From a virus (lineage: Duplodnaviria > Caudoviricetes), in the IMG/VR virus record IMGVR_UViG_3300034062_006701: a DNA stretch of 64,000 nucleotides. One strand, written 5' to 3'. Positions 1 to 27,920 of this stretch are shown here, piece by piece. Positions within the stretch are counted from its first letter, which is position 1, and every line of letters begins with the position of its first letter. Made by a program: the position numbers and the translations under genes. The notes under the pieces are model-generated. The model ran no database searches. It was not told the DNA's origin and saw nothing but the letters and a program-made list of their open reading frames with translations.

Positions 1-132
1 ACCATTGTAGAAGAAGCTGTTACCCTTCTTTTCGATGTTTTCGACATCCAGAGGAACAAGGCTGTAACCTTGAAGCGTCTGGCGAATATTGTTGCTTTGG
101 GCAACGAACTTATCTAGTGTTGTTGTACTCAT
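1..132 (-). CDS. Hypothetical protein, N-terminal part only (runs off window start)
   Basis: ATG at 132 preceded by AAGGGGG and a TATTAT -10; reads MSTTTLDKFVAQSNNIRQTLQGYSLVPLDVENIEKKGNSFFYNG with no stop before base 1. Confidence 0.7.
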   Translation of the reverse strand, partial: MSTTTLDKFVAQSNNIRQTLQGYSLVPLDVENIEKKGNSFFYNG

Positions 133-141
133 GACCCCCTT

Positions 142-165
142 ATAATACGGGCACGAGAAAAGGAA
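142..165 (-). promoter_or_regulatory. Early-type promoter with TTCCTTTT box and TATTAT -10
   Basis: Minus strand reads GAGTTCCTTTTCTCGTGCCCGTATTATAAGGGGGTC-ATG; the box recurs at four other promoters. Confidence 0.5.
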
Positions 166-220
166 CTCCAGAAATTTCTTTAGGATTCCGGAAGTACTTT
201 GTAATTCCTTGATTTTAAAT

Positions 221-265
221 AAAAAAACCGGAGCTGGAATGTGACTAGCACCCAACTCCGGTTTT
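221..265 (-). terminator. Intrinsic terminator closing the RNA operon
   Basis: Minus strand: ACCGGAGTTGG / CCAGCTCCGGT 11-bp stem (one G-U) followed by a T run. Confidence 0.8.
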
Positions 266-344
266 CTCTTTTATACGATCCTCTCACCAACGCGCTGGTA
301 TCAACAAGGCATCGAGTCTGCTTTTCTTTATTCCCTCTGCATTT

Positions 345-930
345 GTGCTGGGGTTACAACACGATTAGGACTTGAGACCTTTGGCGACTACGGATAGCTA
401 ATCCATTCACCAGTAGCATTACTAAAGAAATTATTGGTATTGAAAGATTTTATTCCGGATTTTGTTCTTTCCTCAACGGGTACCGGCATGGAGCCAGCGC
501 GCCGTCCAGTCTGTGTTTATTAAAGCAAGGGATCAAAGCTGTACGCAGGTTTTTGGCTCCCCCTCTGAAAATACGTCTACTAACTTACCAACAGACAACT
601 CAACGCATCTCTCCCACGGATTATACCTACAACGCGGGAACTTATTTTAATGATTACTGGCCTATCGGAGCTAGGAAGTTTATAGCTCCCGTTCTTTAAG
701 ACTTGTGAAACTCTTAAAACTACTAGGTCGCTACTACCCGCGGCTTCGGACTAGTATTGCTACTACCGAGAACTATACGCAGTAATCAAATTATTATGAC
801 CGGGGTGGTTGTAATCCATCCTAGTGCACCGGTTGATGAAGGCCTTTCAGAGCGAACCTAGTCACGCACACGTACGGTTCAGACCTTAGATGGTCTTCGG
901 CTCTTTCGATCGAGCCTGCGAACGGTCAAA
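345..930 (-). ncRNA. Large ornate ncRNA, GOLLD-like (~590 nt; ends approximate)
   Basis: No credible ORF; many hairpins (GGCTC/GAGCC, GACC/GGTC, GAACC/GGTTC, ACCGG/CCGGT, TAGTA-GCAA-TACTA, TTTAAGA/TCTTAAA, GGAGCTA/TAGCTCC); perfect long-range helix TGATTACTG/CAGTAATCA (780-788 with 651-659); ordered blocks CGTTGAGT, CTCCATGC, TGGATTAGC..GCCAAAG and terminal GTGTTGTAACCCCAGCAC resemble the GOLLD 3' domain as I recall it; directly downstream of a tRNA. Confidence 0.65.
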
Positions 931-932
931 TT

Positions 933-1005
933 TGGCAGGGCCGGGAATCGAACCCGGAATCTTGTGGTTATGAGCCACACGACTTAACCGTTTGTCCACC
1001 CTGCG
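933..1005 (-). tRNA. tRNA-Met (CAT), initiator-like
   Basis: Cloverleaf CGCAGGG..CCCTGCC A; anticodon arm TGTGG-CTCATAA-CCACA; T arm CCGGG-TTCGATT-CCCGG; C1.C72 mismatch; CCA not encoded. Confidence 0.9.
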
Positions 1006-1018
1006 TTAAAATGTACTA

Positions 1019-1071
1019 TCAAAGATCAATTCTTATTCCATTAATATATAGTCTATAGTAGGGACTGGCAA
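1019..1071 (-). promoter_or_regulatory. Sigma70-type promoter plus boxA-like element for tRNA-Met and the GOLLD-like RNA
   Basis: TTGCCA (1071-1066), 17-nt spacer, TATATT (1048-1043), then TGATCTTTGA (1028-1019). Confidence 0.7.
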
Positions 1072-1081
1072 GAATAAAAAA

Positions 1082-1158
1082 TGGCACGTGGTGAAAGAAT
1101 CGAACTTTCCCAATCGCTTTTGGAGAGCAATTCGCCTATCCTTGGAACATTACCACGC
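1082..1158 (-). tRNA. tRNA-Trp (CCA)
   Basis: Acceptor GCGTGGT/ACCACGT, G73, encoded CCA; anticodon arm TTGCT-CTCCAAA-AGCGA; T arm GAAAG-TTCGATT-CTTTC; weak D arm. Confidence 0.85.
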
Positions 1159-1164
1159 AAAAAG

Positions 1165-1247
1165 TGGAGCCTGTGGAGGGACTCGAACCCCCGTTGTTTG
1201 TATACCACTTTACAAAAGTGGTGCTGTCGCCGCTGAGCCACACAGGC
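1165..1247 (-). tRNA. tRNA-Thr (TGT) with a 12-nt variable region
   Basis: Acceptor GCCTGTG/CACAGGC, U73, encoded CCA; anticodon arm CCACT-TTTGTAA-AGTGG; T arm GGGGG-TTCGAGT-CCCTC. Confidence 0.8.
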
Positions 1248-1262
1248 GTGAAAATTATTTAG

Positions 1263-1347
1263 ACCGCAACTAGAGCGAATTCAATCTTTCGGAGGATTGC
1301 TAATACCTCGTTCCTAACAGGAATTCTACCTGCTCTCTAATTGCAGT
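1263..1347 (-). ncRNA. Unassigned 85-nt structured RNA
   Basis: Ends pair in a 13-bp stem with G-U pairs (ACTGCAATTAGAG / CTCTAGTTGCGGT) enclosing hairpins GCAGG-TAGAATT-CCTGT and CAATC-CTCCGAAA-GATTG; sits between tmRNA and tRNA-Thr. Confidence 0.6.
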
Positions 1348-1351
1348 AAAT

Positions 1352-1800
1352 TGGTGGAGGCGTCGGAGATCTGCCCTCCGAGTCCTTATAATATTTCTCT
1401 TATATTTTCTACACGCTTATGTAAGTTTAGGATTTGATTGACTACAGGCTCCTATGGCTTACCAGCCTATCTTTTTAAGTCTGCCTATATAGATGAAGAG
1501 TTCTATACAACCCCTTGTACTGAGTTTTCTAGGAGTCACAAGTACCTCCATAACCTATTGGTTTAGCTCCCTAAGATCTTTAATAGGATCCAATCTTAGT
1601 TTTTAGGCAGCGAGGAGTGACTCTTCTTCGCAGCTGGCGAGGATATCGTCAGCGTTGTTGAAACAGTACTCAGCTTCTGCTAAGAGCGCATCGATGTTAT
1701 CTTCTGCGTTTAGTTTTTTAGAAGGCTTTTATAGTGGCCAACCTTCCAACCACTGCGTGCAATATAAAACCAGACTATAAGTCGATTCTATGTCGCCCCC
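1352..1800 (-). ncRNA. ssrA: tmRNA (one-piece, 449 nt)
   Basis: 5' GGGGGCGACATAGAATCGAC; 3' CGCCTCC-A-CCA giving G3.U70; pk1 (GTGG/CCAC, GAAGGT/GCCTTC); resume context AAACTAAAC-GCA; tag ends LAA. Confidence 0.93.
1603..1707 (-). other. tmRNA tag reading frame AEDNIDALLAEAEYCFNNADDILASCEEESLLAA*
   Basis: Resume codon GCA at 1707-1705 to TAA at 1605-1603; 34 sense codons. Confidence 0.85.
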
Positions 1801-1807
1801 ATAAATT

Positions 1808-1872
1808 TCAAAGATCATTGAGCGTATATGCTCTTATTTCCTATAATATATATGCTCTAGAGAGTGTGGCAA
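1808..1872 (-). promoter_or_regulatory. Sigma70-type promoter plus boxB-like hairpin and boxA-like element for the tmRNA-tRNA operon
   Basis: TTGCCA (1872-1867); -10 TATATT or TATTAT (16 or 18-nt spacer); hairpin GAGC-ATATAC-GCTC (1833-1820); TGATCTTTGA (1817-1808). Confidence 0.7.
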
Positions 1873-1906
1873 GTCTTAATCTGCTTGGTTTTTAGCTATT
1901 TTTTAC

Positions 1907-1912
1907 TAAATA
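1907..1912 (+). promoter_or_regulatory. T4-like late promoter TAAATA (representative of many copies)
   Basis: TAAATA just upstream of starts; also at 11532, 17534, 21761, 32741, 38020, 39883, 41194, 41785, 44897, 54344 (+) and 11344, 48370, 54293, 61744, 63073 (-). Confidence 0.75.
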
Positions 1913-1918
1913 CCTATA

Positions 1919-3652
1919 ATGCCTGATTATAACCCTAATGTTATTGCAAATCCTCAAGTAGCGGAATACGGAAAGTTTACACAATTGAATGGTTCACGCT
2001 TCCCTGCTGTTTCTGTTACAAGGGTTCAATATCCAGATAAATCACAAGCATTTCCAGGGAATACTAACGCTCTCCCTGTAACAACCATCGACATATATCC
2101 AAAGTTTGGCGTATTAAGCTATATAACTAATACTGATGACTTCGCAGTATCACTGAGTGCAGGTCAGATCAATCTCGATACATCGCTAATTGAATTTCAT
2201 ATTTCAAATATAGATGCGGAGACTACTATCATGGCTAACGCTCTCACGGCGACAGAATGGAACACATTTGATGCAGCTTCTGGTATTAATGAGTTGAATT
2301 TTAATTTTCTCAACGCTGTATCGGCGCTAAGTACAACCATTGTCAATCCTGTGATTATCGGTAATAGAGGTAACGGTAATACAGCTACCGTTTATGCTCC
2401 GACTTCCTCTCTTAACGTCAATGTTACAAATACAATTAACAGCATTACAACACCAGAGCCAACACAACTTGATGCTTTTGGTCGTTTAAGAGTCTCAACA
2501 CCTCTCACACTTTTTGATTCTTCCCACCGTTATAGAGATAATAATCTTTGGTCATCATTAACTGCTGTAGGTGGGACCTATGCATTTAATGCAAATCAGG
2601 GATTGATAGATCTAACAGTAAGTTCGTTATCAGGTTCTTCAGTTATCAGAGAAACAACAAAAGTGTTCTCATACCAACCTGGTAAAAGTTTACTCGTAAT
2701 GAATACGTTTGTAATGGCTTCTTCTGCTACAGATTTAAGACAAAGAGTAGGTTATTTTGGAAGTCAGAATGGAATTTATTTTCAATTAGATGATGGTAAT
2801 ATTGGTCTGGTTAAAAGATCTCTTGTGTCGGGTTCTGTTGTAGATACTATAGTTTTAAGGTCTAGTTGGAACGGAGATAAGTTAGATGGGACAGGAGCCT
2901 CTGGATTAACTCTTGATATAACAAAGGCTCAAATATTTTGGATGGATATTGAATGGCTTGGTGTTGGATCAGTTCGTACAGGTTTTATTATTAACGGACA
3001 GTATATTGTTTGTCATTCCTTTCATCATGCTAATATAATTGATTCTACATACATAACAACAGCATCTCTACCTTTAAGATATGAGATTACAAATAAAGCT
3101 GCTACAGGTGTTTCTAAAACTTTAAAGCAGATATGTTCTTCTGTTGTTTCCGAAGGTGGTTATGAATTAAGAGGTCTTCAACAGGCAGTAGGTACCGCTA
3201 TAACAGCACCAAGAAGTCTTGGAACACCCGCAGGAACCTATCGCCCTGTTGTTTCAATTAGATTAAAAACATCTCCAAATAGATTAGATGCAATAGTAAT
3301 ACTAACAGCTTTATCTGTAATGGGTGTTGATACAGGGATATATAGTTGGCGAGTAATTGCTTCTGGAACAACTGTTGATGGTACTTGGCAGGATGCAGGA
3401 GTTGATTCAGCAGTTGAATATAAATTAGATGGAACAAGCATTACTGGCGGAAGAATCTTAGCACAAGGATATCTTACATCAAACGCACAGGGCGCAACAA
3501 CAGTTGATATTTTAAAGGAAGCTCTTTTTAAATTTCAATTAGAAAGAAATGGACTTACAGGTGTTCCTTATGAACTTACTTTAGCAGTAGCAGCAAGTAC
3601 ACAAAATGAAGTTGTACATGCTTCAATGGATTGGGAAGAGATTAGCAGGTAA
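1919..3652 (+). CDS. Conserved phage protein, probably virion-associated (beta-rich C-terminal domain)
   Basis: 577-aa ORF behind a late promoter; block DAFGRLRVSTPLTLFDSSHRY is familiar from aquatic phages. Confidence 0.6.
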   Translation: MPDYNPNVIANPQVAEYGKFTQLNGSRFPAVSVTRVQYPDKSQAFPGNTNALPVTTIDIYPKFGVLSYITNTDDFAVSLSAGQINLDTSLIEFHISNIDAETTIMANALTATEWNTFDAASGINELNFNFLNAVSALSTTIVNPVIIGNRGNGNTATVYAPTSSLNVNVTNTINSITTPEPTQLDAFGRLRVSTPLTLFDSSHRYRDNNLWSSLTAVGGTYAFNANQGLIDLTVSSLSGSSVIRETTKVFSYQPGKSLLVMNTFVMASSATDLRQRVGYFGSQNGIYFQLDDGNIGLVKRSLVSGSVVDTIVLRSSWNGDKLDGTGASGLTLDITKAQIFWMDIEWLGVGSVRTGFIINGQYIVCHSFHHANIIDSTYITTASLPLRYEITNKAATGVSKTLKQICSSVVSEGGYELRGLQQAVGTAITAPRSLGTPAGTYRPVVSIRLKTSPNRLDAIVILTALSVMGVDTGIYSWRVIASGTTVDGTWQDAGVDSAVEYKLDGTSITGGRILAQGYLTSNAQGATTVDILKEALFKFQLERNGLTGVPYELTLAVAASTQNEVVHASMDWEEISR

Positions 3653-6872: not shown

Positions 6873-6914
6873 ATTATGATTATAATAAAATTATTTTAGG
6901 ATTGCAATAAAAAC

Positions 6915-6987
6915 CTACGAGGGAAAGGCTCGAACTTTCAACCGGCAGATCCAAATTCTGCTGCACTACCAATTGTGCTACCTCGTA
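6915..6987 (-). tRNA. tRNA-Gln (TTG)
   Basis: Acceptor TACGAGG/CCTCGTA (U1-A72), G73; D arm GCAC/GTGC; anticodon arm GCAGA-ATTTGGA-TCTGC; T arm GAAAG-TTCGAGC-CTTTC; no CCA. Confidence 0.85.
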
Positions 6988-6992
6988 ATAGG

Positions 6993-24168: not shown

Positions 24169-24648
24169 ATGAAATTATATTGTCTTGTTGAGAACGGTAT
24201 TGTGGTGGACAGCGTAACGGAGTTACCCATGACATTTGCAAATGTGTCTAATTTTAATGTATTAGATGATAGTGAGTTAAAAACACATGGCTGGCTACCG
24301 TGCTACATTCTTTCAGAAAATAAGGATATTGTTGTATCAGTAGAATATGAAATCTATGATGAGTATGTCAATAAAATTATTATTACCCGTGATAAAACAG
24401 ATAATGAATGCAATCAAAAGCGATCTGACAAAGATATATTAAATGATATTCGTGCAAAAAGAGACGCACTCCTTTCTGAAAGCGATAAAGCTATAGTCAG
24501 TGATCTGTGGTCAGATATGGACGAGCATACACGTGAGAGCTGGAAAAAATATAGACAGTCATTACGTGATATACCTCAATTATATACGTCTACCCATGAT
24601 GTAGACTGGCCGATCTCACCTCTACTTCAAAAAGTAATAGATGTATGA
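24169..24648 (+). CDS. Tail fibre assembly chaperone-like protein
   Basis: IRAKRDALLSESD...WKKYRQSLRDIPQ...VDWP. Confidence 0.8.
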   Translation: MKLYCLVENGIVVDSVTELPMTFANVSNFNVLDDSELKTHGWLPCYILSENKDIVVSVEYEIYDEYVNKIIITRDKTDNECNQKRSDKDILNDIRAKRDALLSESDKAIVSDLWSDMDEHTRESWKKYRQSLRDIPQLYTSTHDVDWPISPLLQKVIDV

Positions 24649-27600
24649 GTATTATCGGCAAAAAGCTAATTATGTCTTCAGGGCAAAACGCATCAGGTCT
24701 TCTGTACGTCTGGGGCAATAACGCAGCTGGTTTATTAGGTGTAGGTACACCAGGAAATATACCAGGTAAGATTGACAGCCAAAGTTGGAAATCAATAGCA
24801 CTCGGTGACGAACATGCAGCTGCTATACGATCTGATGGAGCCTTGTTTACATGGGGATGCAATGGAGACGGTCAGCTAGGGTTAGGTGATTTAATTGATA
24901 GGCCCACTCCTACCCGTGTAGGAACTAGTTCTTGGACTGTAGTGGATGCAGGTGCATCTCATAGTGTGGCTATAGCTGCTGATGGTGGATTATTTGAGTG
25001 GGGTTGGCGCCATGGAAATAACTGTCGAGCCCTAGCACCTACGCGATTGAATACAAACTCATGGTCAGCCATTGCTGCAGGATGTGTTCATAGCCTTGCA
25101 GTGCGGATTGATGGTAAATTATTTGCTTGGGGATATAATAATGACGGTCAACTCGGTACCGGGAATACCGACTATAGCAGTTGCCCTATTCAAATCGGAG
25201 CAGAAAACTGGCAATGTGTTGCAGCGAGTGGCAGGACGAGTGGTGGCATTCGCGGGGATCAGCGAATATTCATGTGGGGAAACGCGTCATACGGTCAATT
25301 AGGCAATAATACTATATCCCTTAATCCTGGTAGATCTGAAGATTGCGGTGTTTGTTCACCTGTGCAGGTAGGTAGTGATCAATGGTCGCATTTAGCTATC
25401 GGTGGCGATTTTGCTGTGGCAGGTATTCGCACAGACAATATACTTTACACCTGGGGTTATAACAGACAAGGACAACTTGGTATACCAGGTAATATAAATA
25501 CAGCAGTAAACACCACATTTCTGTCAGCCGGCCCCTACGGTGGTACATGGAAAAAAATTGCTCTTTCAAAAGGAGTAGGTCAGGGACATGGAGCTGCACT
25601 TCGTTCCGATGGTGTGTTATTTATGTGGGGACGAAATGATTTCGGTCAAACAGGGGCTCTACCTAATGTACCGATAGCGTGTCAATCTCTCTTCATTAAT
25701 AGACCTAAACAGATATGTGCTACTGTTGGTGGTACAGTAAGTAGATGGTGTGATGTCTCTCTCGGTGCTTACCATACTATCGCTCTACCATCTCCTCCGA
25801 CTCATATCAGGTCATGGGGTAGAAACAATTACGGTCAATTAGGTCGCTCAACTACAGGTACAGCGGATCCAAGACCTAACTTCGTTAGCACACCAGCAGG
25901 TTTAAGTTGGGCTAGTGTTTCTGCGGGTACAAATCATAATCTTGCTCTGACTGACTTTGTAGGTTTATCTCCACGGTCAATATTTGCCTGGGGTGATAAC
26001 CGCTATGGTCAGTTAGGTGACTGTACAACAATTGCCAGATCTTGTGCTGTACCTGTTTGTGGTGCTACCGGTTTAACAGGATGTGGACGGAGTATTGCAG
26101 CTGGTGCTAACCATTCGCTGGCCCAAAGCCCTAGCTGTACGTTTTCATGGGGTAAAAACACACATGGTCAGCTAGGTCGAACCACGTTTATTGACCGTGC
26201 ATGTGTACCTGGATGTGTTACTGGCGGAGCCAATATTAACGCTGGTTTAATTGTTGCAGGGGGTGATCATAATCTCATGACCAGATTAGGTTGTTTGTTT
26301 ACATGGGGTAGAAATAATTTTGGTCAGCTTGGAAACGGAAATACCAACAATGTATCAGCCCCTACACAGATAGATACCGCTCTTGGTAGCTGGACGTTTA
26401 TCGGTACAGGTTTTTATAATTCTTTTGCATCAAAGGGTGCCACACTCAGTGGATGGGGGAAAAACGATTGTGGACAGCTAGGCGACGGTACAACCGTAAC
26501 GCGCTGTGTACCAACAACACTGACAGGTAGGTGCGCAATTAACAATCAGCAGTTTGGTAACGACTCTCAGAATCAGACGTTTCAAGGCAGTAATTACGGT
26601 GTTTTAGCTGTTCCCTTGCAAAATAACAGAGTTATTAACTCATGGGGTGGTAGTGTGTCGGAATTACGGTATATACAGCCTATGCCAGTGCAAGTAAATG
26701 CATCTTCGTGGACGTGTGTCAAAGCAACAAGTCAAAATATGATTGCAATTCGTAACGACGGAAACGTATTTACATGGGGTGATAACTGTAGCGGACAACT
26801 TGGTAACGGTACATTTGCACCACAGCCGCAGTCGGTATCATCTCCTGTTCAAATTGGCAATATTGGTGCGGGTTGTGCAATTGATATAGGCTGTGACCGG
26901 GTAGGTGCGATTAATACACAGTCATCACTATATACATGGGGACGTAACACAGATAGTTTACTCCTCGGGAGACAGACGTGTGCCCTTACACCTATTAAAC
27001 TAGATAACCAAAAATGGAAGGAAGTAAGTGTATCTCCTTTAAAGAGACAGGGGACATATAGGGTTACCCAGAATTACAGTCGTAAAACGTATAACATGTA
27101 TTATGCAGGCCATACCGTAGCTATAAGAAAAGACGGGGCGCTTTTTGCATGGGGATTTAATAGCTTTGGTCAACTCGGCGATAGTACATTTGTAAAACGT
27201 AATACCCCTGTACGTGTTACAAATCAGTCATGGACTGCAATTAGTGCTGGGACGTATCATACACTCGGTATTAGAGCAGACGGTGCGCTTTTTGCATGGG
27301 GGAGAAACAGTAGCGGACAAATCGGTGACCTATCTACCGTAGATAGATGTTCCCCTGTTCAAATTGGAACTCAGTCGTGGGTAAACGTAAAGAGCGGTAA
27401 AACCCACTCATTAGCTATACGGGCTGACGGTATACTCTTCGCATGGGGATCAAATCAATACGGTCAGCTCGGTAACGGAAGTACTATCTCTACATCCTCA
27501 CCTGTGCAAATTGGCACATGTTTATGGTCTTCTATTGAATCTGGCTTTAATTCATCTTTCGGAATAACAACAAACAACTCGCTATTTGGGTGGGGGTATA

Positions 27601-27920
27601 ACCGTAATGGGCCTATATGTAACACGAATTGCACTTGTTTTTCAACTCCCTCTCAGATAGCAGGTGCATGGAAATGTGTTGCTGTAGGATCTGCAGGGAC
27701 GATCTCAAGATTTGCAAGTATTAGTGCTACTGTTGATACCTGTATCGCAGTTGCGCGTGGATCTGGATATCGCTTTTGCGATTTATATGACCCTGTTCAG
27801 GCTATGATTACATCAGCCAATAAACTTTGTTTACAGGCGAATATGGATGCTGGGAGTTGCTCCTGGTCGTGGTCAAAAATCAGTATAGGCGGTGATACAA
27901 TAGCAGGTATAAGGTATTGA
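24645..27920 (+). CDS. RCC1-repeat beta-propeller protein
   Basis: Many H-S/T-L-A-I-R-x-D-G-x-L-F-A-W-G-x-N-x-x-G-Q-L-G repeats; Cys-rich. Confidence 0.9.
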   Translation: MSIIGKKLIMSSGQNASGLLYVWGNNAAGLLGVGTPGNIPGKIDSQSWKSIALGDEHAAAIRSDGALFTWGCNGDGQLGLGDLIDRPTPTRVGTSSWTVVDAGASHSVAIAADGGLFEWGWRHGNNCRALAPTRLNTNSWSAIAAGCVHSLAVRIDGKLFAWGYNNDGQLGTGNTDYSSCPIQIGAENWQCVAASGRTSGGIRGDQRIFMWGNASYGQLGNNTISLNPGRSEDCGVCSPVQVGSDQWSHLAIGGDFAVAGIRTDNILYTWGYNRQGQLGIPGNINTAVNTTFLSAGPYGGTWKKIALSKGVGQGHGAALRSDGVLFMWGRNDFGQTGALPNVPIACQSLFINRPKQICATVGGTVSRWCDVSLGAYHTIALPSPPTHIRSWGRNNYGQLGRSTTGTADPRPNFVSTPAGLSWASVSAGTNHNLALTDFVGLSPRSIFAWGDNRYGQLGDCTTIARSCAVPVCGATGLTGCGRSIAAGANHSLAQSPSCTFSWGKNTHGQLGRTTFIDRACVPGCVTGGANINAGLIVAGGDHNLMTRLGCLFTWGRNNFGQLGNGNTNNVSAPTQIDTALGSWTFIGTGFYNSFASKGATLSGWGKNDCGQLGDGTTVTRCVPTTLTGRCAINNQQFGNDSQNQTFQGSNYGVLAVPLQNNRVINSWGGSVSELRYIQPMPVQVNASSWTCVKATSQNMIAIRNDGNVFTWGDNCSGQLGNGTFAPQPQSVSSPVQIGNIGAGCAIDIGCDRVGAINTQSSLYTWGRNTDSLLLGRQTCALTPIKLDNQKWKEVSVSPLKRQGTYRVTQNYSRKTYNMYYAGHTVAIRKDGALFAWGFNSFGQLGDSTFVKRNTPVRVTNQSWTAISAGTYHTLGIRADGALFAWGRNSSGQIGDLSTVDRCSPVQIGTQSWVNVKSGKTHSLAIRADGILFAWGSNQYGQLGNGSTISTSSPVQIGTCLWSSIESGFNSSFGITTNNSLFGWGYNRNGPICNTNCTCFSTPSQIAGAWKCVAVGSAGTISRFASISATVDTCIAVARGSGYRFCDLYDPVQAMITSANKLCLQANMDAGSCSWSWSKISIGGDTIAGIRY

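Follow-up and report, generated by a model that had tools for sequence, protein, structure and literature searches.

The 64,000-nucleotide (nt) stretch of DNA analysed here, the window, comes from the viral record IMGVR_UViG_3300034062_006701 (Caudoviricetes) and is part of a freshwater phage genome of about 221 kb with genes for a virion protein, a tail fibre and a baseplate. Near its start lies a protein-free RNA island of about 1.7 kb, located entirely on the minus strand from position 1872 down to 221. We favour the view, with a probability of about 0.6, that this island consists of two operons of translation RNAs with Nus-type leaders, and that the second operon delivers a self-pairing 512-nt RNA whose end would be made by a twister-type ribozyme. 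The core of this large RNA is a bona fide structured RNA family that is absent from Rfam 15.

The first operon comprises a promoter-like site, a hairpin, a boxA-like word, the gene for transfer-messenger RNA (tmRNA), an RNA of 85 nt, tRNA-Thr and tRNA-Trp, the second one a promoter-like site, a boxA-like word, tRNA-Met, the large RNA and an intrinsic terminator. All these parts, and their order, had been named in an original prediction made from the letters of the window; they are read on the minus strand from 1872 downwards. The interval assigned to the module at that time, 345-1872, holds most of them, but the terminator (221-261), a tail in front of it and the last bases of the ribozyme fall outside. 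The further claim that the region is free of protein genes stands: a scan for open reading frames (ORFs) found none of more than 62 amino acids (aa) in 133-1918, and since stop codons interrupt the longest ORFs of the island in relatives, a protein-coding reading of them was rejected. The G+C content of the island is 0.42-0.47, compared to approximately 0.35-0.40 in the flanking genes.

Via the adjacent virion protein we reached four syntenic contigs, L081 (LR798360, from an uncultured freshwater phage), L084, L085 and L088, in which the module is kept, with the exception that L088 has no 85-nt RNA. The differences among these relatives are insertions and deletions of whole hairpins as well as of single bases, a pattern to be expected of RNA genes rather than of protein genes.

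In the reading that we favour, a sigma-70-like promoter would start each operon, and the boxA-like word UGAUCUUUGA in the leader would recruit NusB and NusE of the host, so that the polymerase is not stopped on a long untranslated RNA. The first operon would yield tmRNA, the 85-nt RNA, tRNA-Thr and tRNA-Trp, and the second one an initiator-like tRNA-Met followed by the large RNA, for which we predict 512 nt (932 to 421, minus strand). Processing of the tRNA 3' end would free the 5' end of this RNA, and the ribozyme is predicted to cut between U421 and A420 and thereby to create its 3' end. Finally, a self-complementary loop on the A-rich apical hairpin of the core would most likely allow copies to kiss and to form a homodimer or a larger body, as do GOLLD, ROOL and OLE.

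The core RNA family

435-640, minus strand: pseudoknotted core of 206 nt with seven nested helices, three pseudoknots and the hairpin GGCUCCAUGCC
453-460, minus strand: palindromic centre of the loop of helix H5, UCCGGA in the window, the proposed copy-to-copy kissing contact

Pattern scans located copies of the core in 19 IMG/VR viral loci and 26 metagenome loci, which together give 40 distinct copies. Without exception, these lie in contigs from phages, viruses or metagenomes, and most are embedded in tRNA arrays. For at least 29 of the 40, a tRNA is encoded on the same strand no more than 800 nt away, and many belong to arrays of 8-13 tRNAs. Among 185,579 prokaryotic species, each represented by one genome, there was no true match to the core by pattern scan and profile scoring. 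The profile scoring led us to reject 50 of the 76 metagenome matches and all 40 genome matches of the pattern scans, as these fitted the pattern alone.

Neither at the gathering level nor at E-values up to 10 on the region does Rfam contain a family for the core, the accessory domains of the large RNA or the 85-nt RNA, and GOLLD, ROOL, RNase P, group I intron, Y-RNA-like RNA and 6S RNA were all without a match in the Rfam search of the window. When the whole module was compared to 50,697 GenBank phage records by BLASTN, the tRNA pieces alone were matched. A set of 80 IMG/VR loci was fetched via the neighbouring structural gene, and tmRNA is present in seven of them. The large RNA, however, went undetected in these 80 loci when nhmmer was run with a single sequence as query; in the phages concerned it sits elsewhere, where the later pattern scans located it.

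The structure of the core was evaluated in a MAFFT alignment of 33 distinct sequences, with pairing partners slid by 1-3 columns as a control. In the core structure 86.6% of the pair cells are paired (34-49% when slid), the covariation score is 0.357 (0.08-0.15) and 31 pairs are changed on both sides (13-17), although this contrast is inflated, as the structure was derived partly from the same 33 sequences. Covariation speaks for each of the three pseudoknots. In PK2, 99.4% of the cells are paired and three pairs are changed on both sides, and PK3, which links the 3' tail of the core back to the loop of helix H2, shows a switch from G-C to A-U in eight sequences. The hairpin GGCUCCAUGCC is invariant save for one base in one sequence. 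A resemblance of the window core to conserved region I of RNase P (GAGGAAAG...UCCGG) was dismissed, since this word is not conserved in the family.

Helix H5 of the core covaries and carries an A-rich apical loop of 18 nt. The centre of this loop is self-complementary in 37 of 37 distinct sequences, in two of them via G:U pairs only. There are about seven versions of the palindrome, namely UCCGGA in the window, UUCCGGAA, UUCUAGAA, AUACUAGUAU, UCCUAGGA, UCUAGA and the wobble version UCUAGG; UACUAGUA is also named among them. The two adjacent nucleotides in the very centre are UA in 17 and CG in 16 of 33 sequences and never anything else, while the next pair outward is U-A, C-G or A-U. A tree from which the palindrome columns were left out requires at least five switches of the centre between CUAG and CCGG. 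Since adjacent nucleotides cannot pair within one strand, this central switch supports pairing between copies. The same palindrome argument supports copy-to-copy kissing in GOLLD (L21a) and OLE (L9.3) (Kretsch et al.). It is therefore most likely that two copies of the core kiss via the H5 loop in a homodimer or a larger assembly, two outcomes that a single contact does not tell apart. A palindrome UUCCGGAA is also present in the 5' untranslated region of the next gene (around 186-193), but covariation with it was rejected, since it is invariant while the core loop varies.

The twister-like ribozyme and the 3' end of the large RNA

327-426, minus strand: type-P1 twister-like ribozyme with P3 and P5 hairpins (RF03160, 28.3 bits, E = 6e-4 with 661 nt searched)
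262-326, minus strand: conserved A-rich tail that leads from the ribozyme to the terminator and may form a hairpin with GCGCG in its loop

At the orthologous site of six loci, no Rfam family scores higher than RF03160; these are the window, L088 (42.3 bits, E = 2.4e-7 with 2.5 kb searched) and L090, L092, L094 and L108 (about 26-32 bits). The twister fold includes a double pseudoknot between L4 and L1 (T1) and between L4 and L2 (T2) (PMC6154101). In 21 distinct variants of the island element, the stems follow in the expected order, with P1 of 3-5 pairs, P2 as UGC/GCA and P4 of 3-4 pairs. P3, P4 and P5 covary across these variants: of P4 there are eight versions, which pair completely save for a few with an open outermost pair, P3 is either missing or takes the form of one of four hairpins unrelated to each other, and changes in P5 are compensated. 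Complementarity holds in 21 of 21 for both T1 (CUC:GAG, or CUC:GGG with a wobble pair) and T2 (AC:GU), and compared to the consensus of Rfam (CCC:GGG and GC:GC), each of the two carries changes in both partners. The elements kept throughout are the cleavage site UAA, GUCUCAAGU as loop L4, AAA and GAGRG. The residues of the active site are found in the window and its relatives, i.e. the U-A step, the AA that follows, CAAG in L4, AAA before P2' and a G in P2'; in the variant of L107, a C replaces the U before the cut.

The position of the element relative to the core points to its role. It starts 1-10 nt past the core in 18 copies and 85-117 nt past it in five. Two of the latter, L081 and L088, carry a tRNA insertion some 510 nt into the large RNA, which splits off a 3' element that Rfam aligns to the type-P1 twister; the other three, with a spacing as in L088, probably also hold a tRNA at this place. 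Twelve copies of more distant clades have no twister, and where the contig continues, a tRNA often follows 3-4 nt past the core. The twister thus occupies the position that a tRNA has in distant relatives, and cleavage by RNase P at the downstream tRNA and cleavage by the twister would leave almost the same 3' end. Moreover, the twister appears where no further gene separates the large RNA, or the inserted tRNA, from the terminator. From this positional equivalence we consider it most likely that the twister cut forms the 3' end of the large RNA. In the literature searched, we did not find a twister as the last element of a phage operon for tRNA or non-coding RNA.

The tail behind the ribozyme is nearly invariant in five close relatives, and one pair is changed on both sides in L104. 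Its folding energy is not above that of shuffled sequences (z = 0.19).

A quite different account would treat the palindrome as a site at the DNA level, either an operator for a dimeric protein or a target of restriction and methylation, the twister-like element as an inactive relic and the whole region as an ordinary tRNA/tmRNA cluster with structured spacers. CCGG and CTAG are indeed common recognition sequences, the twister scores lie under the Rfam threshold, and the tail and the spacers have little folding signal. However, protein sites conserve sequence and not complementarity, whereas here about seven palindromes share one covarying hairpin loop, and the switches, at least five in number, are double ones with no intermediate. 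As to the relic, the 21 variants retain all conserved twister elements, and the substitutions in P3, P4 and P5 are compensated, which indicates selection on the fold. We regard this account as very improbable.

In distant relatives, a different conserved structured element follows the core in place of the twister (L096, 1849-1884, and L101, 1406-1441, each with about 230 nt after it; also L100 and L102). Its start reaches 35-36 bits for the abiF RNA motif in L096 and L101 (RF03085, gathering threshold 37), and a related stretch precedes the twister in L090 and L097.

Composite make-up of the large RNA

797-928, minus strand: accessory domain 1, closed by UGACCG/CGGUCA (alignments A1, A2 and A7)
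652-787, minus strand: accessory domain 2 with a stem of nine base pairs (bp), UGAUUACUG/CAGUAAUCA (RNAalifold, nine sequences)

The original prediction had described an ornate RNA as a single unit. What we find instead are three domains, each with its own closing stem, plus the twister-like ribozyme; the linkers between the domains are 9-10 nt long and A/U-rich. Domain 1 contains a 20-nt hairpin that is present or absent among relatives, and domain 2 holds a hairpin with a GCAA tetraloop and a variable insert. While the core is constant, both accessory domains are swapped, lost or replaced among relatives. An unrelated domain stands in place of domain 1 in L094, L098 and L108, and domain 1 is absent in L107, where the core directly follows tRNA-Met. 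L097 has no domain 2 and joins domain 1 directly to the core, and in L102 a promoter-like site is located directly before the core.

This modularity is the basis of the main rival explanation, according to which the large RNA is a string of separately processed small stable RNAs (domain 1, domain 2 and core) that are cut apart in the AU-rich linkers, in the manner of the stable RNAs of the T4 tRNA cluster, with the core of about 206 nt as the sole widely conserved functional unit. It would fit with the terminal stem that every domain possesses, with the short linkers of 9-10 nt and with the mixing of domains across L097, L094, L098, L108, L107 and L102. However, GOLLD too has a conserved 3' and a variable 5' region in one molecule, so modularity is no proof, and in the window no processing signal by tRNA or ribozyme is found between the domains. 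We consider separate RNAs possible but clearly the less probable arrangement; they are in any case compatible with the conclusions on core self-pairing and on the twister.

The loop of a domain 1 hairpin (GGCUC-GAUCGAAA-GAGCC, loop at 906-913, minus strand) also contains a palindrome of 4 nt, GAUC. A hairpin with UGCA in the loop replaces the whole of it in L091. The loop may be a second self-pairing loop, although there are no more than these two versions of it among the sequences compared.

Promoters, leaders and terminator

1843-1872, minus strand: promoter-like site P1 of the tmRNA operon (TTGCCA, 16-18 nt, TATATT/TATTAT; 10 of 12 matches in a consensus scan)
1820-1833, minus strand: leader hairpin in the position of a boxB, with a 4-bp stem GAGC/GCUC and a 6-nt loop (-5.5 kcal/mol, z = -3.5)
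1808-1817, minus strand: boxA-like word TGATCTTTGA in the tmRNA leader, 7 nt 5' of the tmRNA start
1043-1071, minus strand: promoter-like site P2 of the operon for tRNA-Met and the large RNA (TTGCCA, 17 nt, TATATT; 10 of 12 matches in a consensus scan)
1019-1028, minus strand: boxA-like word TGATCTTTGA in the second leader, 13 nt 5' of tRNA-Met
221-261, minus strand: intrinsic terminator, a 15-bp hairpin followed by U7 (-22.8 kcal/mol, z = -6.0)

P1 is conserved in L081, L084 and L088, and P2 is conserved in relatives as well. The exact 10-nt word TGATCTTTGA occurs only twice in the 64 kb, both times on the minus strand and downstream of P1 or P2. Both untranslated operons have a BoxA-type word in their predicted leader, where the box (UGAUCUUU-GA) lies 16-26 nt past the -10 element and 7-13 nt ahead of the first mature RNA. 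In 19 related loci, the word is confined to tmRNA leaders and to the leader before tRNA-Met and the large RNA. Most relatives with a tmRNA have it in the tmRNA leader, and 17 relatives have it in the second leader, regardless of the RNA that follows there.

BoxA of the rrn operons of E. coli is UGCUCUUU. The word in the island matches seven of its eight core positions. The tmRNA leaders of relatives mostly have a short hairpin before the box at the same place but of different sequence. The promoter-boxB-boxA leader proposed at the outset is therefore borne out as far as a conserved boxA-like word and, in the tmRNA leader, a hairpin of variable sequence ahead of it are concerned, while the use of NusB and NusE is deduced from sequence and position only. 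On this basis, the word probably recruits NusB and NusE, and rRNA-style antitermination of both operons is plausible.

The terminator was confirmed by folding, as its loop is too long for a simple consensus scan. Its stem shows compensated changes in L081 and L084.

In addition to the partial circularity of the core structure mentioned above, several observations weigh against the two-operon reading with its self-pairing, twister-ended RNA. The twister scores of 25.8-42.3 bits are far below the gathering threshold of 67.2, and P2 is invariant and contains a U:U mismatch, so ribozyme activity is not assured; much of the low score is, however, explained by the exchange of G-C for A-U in both pseudoknots, for which the covariance model gives no credit. 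The boxA-like word departs from BoxA of E. coli at position 3. The outer pairs of the palindrome could close a small intramolecular hairpin, and it is the switch of the central dinucleotide alone that strictly needs pairing between copies. Finally, since the three domains of the large RNA combine differently among relatives, they may be cut apart into separate small RNAs and not form one molecule of 512 nt.

tmRNA and the 85-nt RNA

1352-1800, minus strand: one-piece tmRNA, full length in Rfam RF00023 (85.7 bits, gathering threshold 47)
1263-1347, minus strand: 85-nt structured RNA with a 13-bp closing stem and internal hairpins (minimum free energy -29.6 kcal/mol, z = -3.5)

The tmRNA has the G3:U pair in its acceptor (GGGGGCG/CGCCUCC), an encoded CCA, pseudoknots and a tag frame with the typical LAA at its end. 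The frame comprises 34 codons, which is unusually long, and ends in ESLLAA-UAA (1590-1704, minus strand). The tag frames of L081 and L088 are of similar length but quite different in sequence and end in LMAA, and a short tag, ADEEMLLAA, is found in relatives further away.

The 85-nt RNA begins 4 nt past the CCA of the tmRNA and is located directly behind the tmRNA in all six distinct relatives that possess it, and four pairs of its closing stem are changed on both sides in relatives. In L088, an ORF of 211 aa takes its place. The tmRNA is the only firm association of the 85-nt RNA. The core, in turn, occurs in distant relatives without a nearby tmRNA, twister or boxA word. The suggestion that the two orphan RNAs are one co-inherited system does not hold in view of these distributions: a survey of synteny in relatives ties the core to tRNA genes, and the two RNAs assort independently.

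This result also bears on the idea that the large RNA, alone or together with the 85-nt RNA, forms a cage for phage tRNAs or serves as a decoy for host nucleases that cut tRNAs in defence. The consistent location of the core inside tRNA arrays, the tRNA that separates core and twister in L081 and L088 and the self-pairing loop are all compatible with it, as any cage would require self-association; in addition, GOLLD and ROOL, which are found near tRNA islands, form cages for which encapsulation of tRNA was suggested (Kretsch et al.). However, covariation supports one self-complementary contact, whereas a closed cage needs several kinds. Neither a tRNA-like element nor a mimic of an anticodon loop was found in the core with Rfam and ARAGORN, and the linkage to tRNA genes could just as well reflect a shared use of RNase P and of operon processing. 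Together with the independent assortment of the 85-nt RNA and the core, this makes a cage or decoy rather unlikely in our opinion.

tRNA genes

1165-1247, minus strand: tRNA-Thr (UGU) of 83 nt with an enlarged variable region and an encoded CCA (ARAGORN; Rfam tRNA 55.1 bits)
1082-1158, minus strand: tRNA-Trp (CCA) with a non-canonical D arm (ARAGORN; Rfam 21.2 bits, below the gathering threshold of 29)
933-1005, minus strand: tRNA-Met (CAU) with an unpaired position 1:72 and no encoded CCA (ARAGORN; Rfam 60.9 bits, first acceptor pair flagged as non-standard)

The unpaired 1:72 makes tRNA-Met initiator-like, as in bacterial initiator tRNAs. Its orthologue is strongly diverged in L084 (5013-5084), L085 (4416-4486) and L088, where ARAGORN misses it, with compensated changes in the acceptor and anticodon stems and the T loop GGUGCAAUUCC. 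The tRNA-Trp is conserved in L084, L085 and L088.

The tRNA-Thr of the window has an odd extra stretch of 9-10 nt in the variable region. A tRNA-Thr of the same 83-nt type is split in L085 (4647-5329, minus strand), where its 5' and 3' halves lie about 600 nt apart and enclose a second, complete tRNA-Thr and an ORF of 148 aa with weak matches to HNH endonucleases. This arrangement looks like the insertion of a homing endonuclease. In L088 (3807-3909, minus strand), the region between core and twister contains a tRNA-like gene (Rfam 45.3 bits, not called by ARAGORN) with a 34-nt insertion in the anticodon loop.

Other genes of the window

6914-6988, minus strand: tRNA-Gln (UUG)
24645-27920, plus strand: protein of 1091 aa among tail and structural genes

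The tRNA-Gln stands alone among protein genes, 5 kb from the island, and has no boxA-like leader; it is conserved in position in L081, L084, L085 and L088. The 1091-aa protein has several matches to RCC1-like repeats (PHROGs annotated as "regulator of chromosome condensation").

Comparison with known systems

With the type-P1 twisters (RF03160; O. sativa, env22), the island element shares the order P1, UAA, P2, P3, P4, an optional P5, AAA, P2', GAGRG and P1', the L4 loop G-U-C-N-C-A-A-G, the U-A cleavage dinucleotide and the complementarity in T1 and T2. It differs from them in the A-U pairs that its pseudoknots carry in place of consensus G-C and in a P2 of 3 bp with the U:U mismatch. In addition, P5 is common in the island variants, whereas it was reported in about 1% of twisters.

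Theta ribozymes, which are HDV-like, are located beside tRNAs in gut phages and were proposed to trim tRNA 3' trailers (PMC10879173). The common ground is a small self-cleaving ribozyme that lies directly downstream of a phage RNA, cuts at its own 5' edge and might form 3' ends without host nucleases, where the activity of the island element is predicted from sequence. In L081 and L088 the twister even stands directly behind a tRNA. Nevertheless, the ribozyme class is a different one, the phages are freshwater instead of gut phages, the twister of the window follows the large RNA and not a tRNA, and there is no link to suppressor tRNAs or recoding. If the proposed role is correct, the twister would gain a clear biological job: it would finish the 3' ends of non-coding RNAs or tRNAs at sites where relatives depend on RNase P and a tRNA located further downstream.

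As in the rrn and lambda nut leaders, a single-stranded U-rich word is present in the leader of an untranslated RNA operon. BoxA consists of an 8-nt core with a purine at position 9 (PMC3177189), and rrn leaders have the order boxB-boxA-boxC (PMC3177189, PMC10250234). The purine at position 9 is shared by the island word and those of E. coli and Aquifex, and the tmRNA leader has the same order of hairpin and box. On the other hand, the island word has A and not C at position 3, no boxC was identified in the island, and its operons encode tmRNA, tRNA and non-coding RNA instead of rRNA. The conserved boxA-like leader suggests that phages may borrow the rRNA antitermination of their host for such operons.

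The tRNA cluster of phage T4 contains the stable RNAs species 1 and 2, which are small and structured, are co-transcribed with the tRNAs and are released by tRNA processing. The 85-nt RNA and the accessory domains resemble them, a likeness by description only, while nothing known there corresponds to the palindromic loop or the ribozyme.

In kind, the large RNA stands close to GOLLD and ROOL (RF01998, RF03087), ornate large RNAs of phages and prophages. With them the large RNA has in common that it is phage-encoded and found in or beside tRNA islands (GOLLD env-38 even lies downstream of tRNA-Met, as does the RNA of the island), that it is several hundred nt long with multiple pseudoknots, that its 3' region is conserved and its 5' region variable with tRNAs sometimes inserted, and that it has self-complementary loops with palindromes that switch in sequence. 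In contrast, its conserved part is much smaller (about 206 nt), it ends in a predicted ribozyme of a self-cleaving type, and only one copy-to-copy contact is deduced for it. GOLLD and ROOL form RNA-only nanocages. There was no match to either family at E-values up to 10 in the window (100-2000 and 280-940) or up to 0.5 in eight related loci. That phages keep large RNAs able to self-assemble next to their tRNAs, as GOLLD and ROOL show, is puzzling. A further family, unrelated to these but alike in its address and its sign of self-pairing, would mean that the phenomenon is general, and a conserved part of about 206 nt with 40 natural variants and ready-made orthogonal kissing sequences offers a smaller system for its study.

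The core is likely to add a third family to the large RNAs beside phage tRNA genes. It is a good deal more doubtful, but conceivable, that this third and structurally unrelated family of tRNA-island RNAs self-assembles via its kissing loop and acts on tRNA supply or translation, with the twister and the Nus-type leader as its dedicated production line, so that the island would be a protein-free, self-processing RNA "organelle" module. By its address and its palindrome, we file the core as a new family of the GOLLD and ROOL kind, coupled to what appears to be a new twister variant in a new context.

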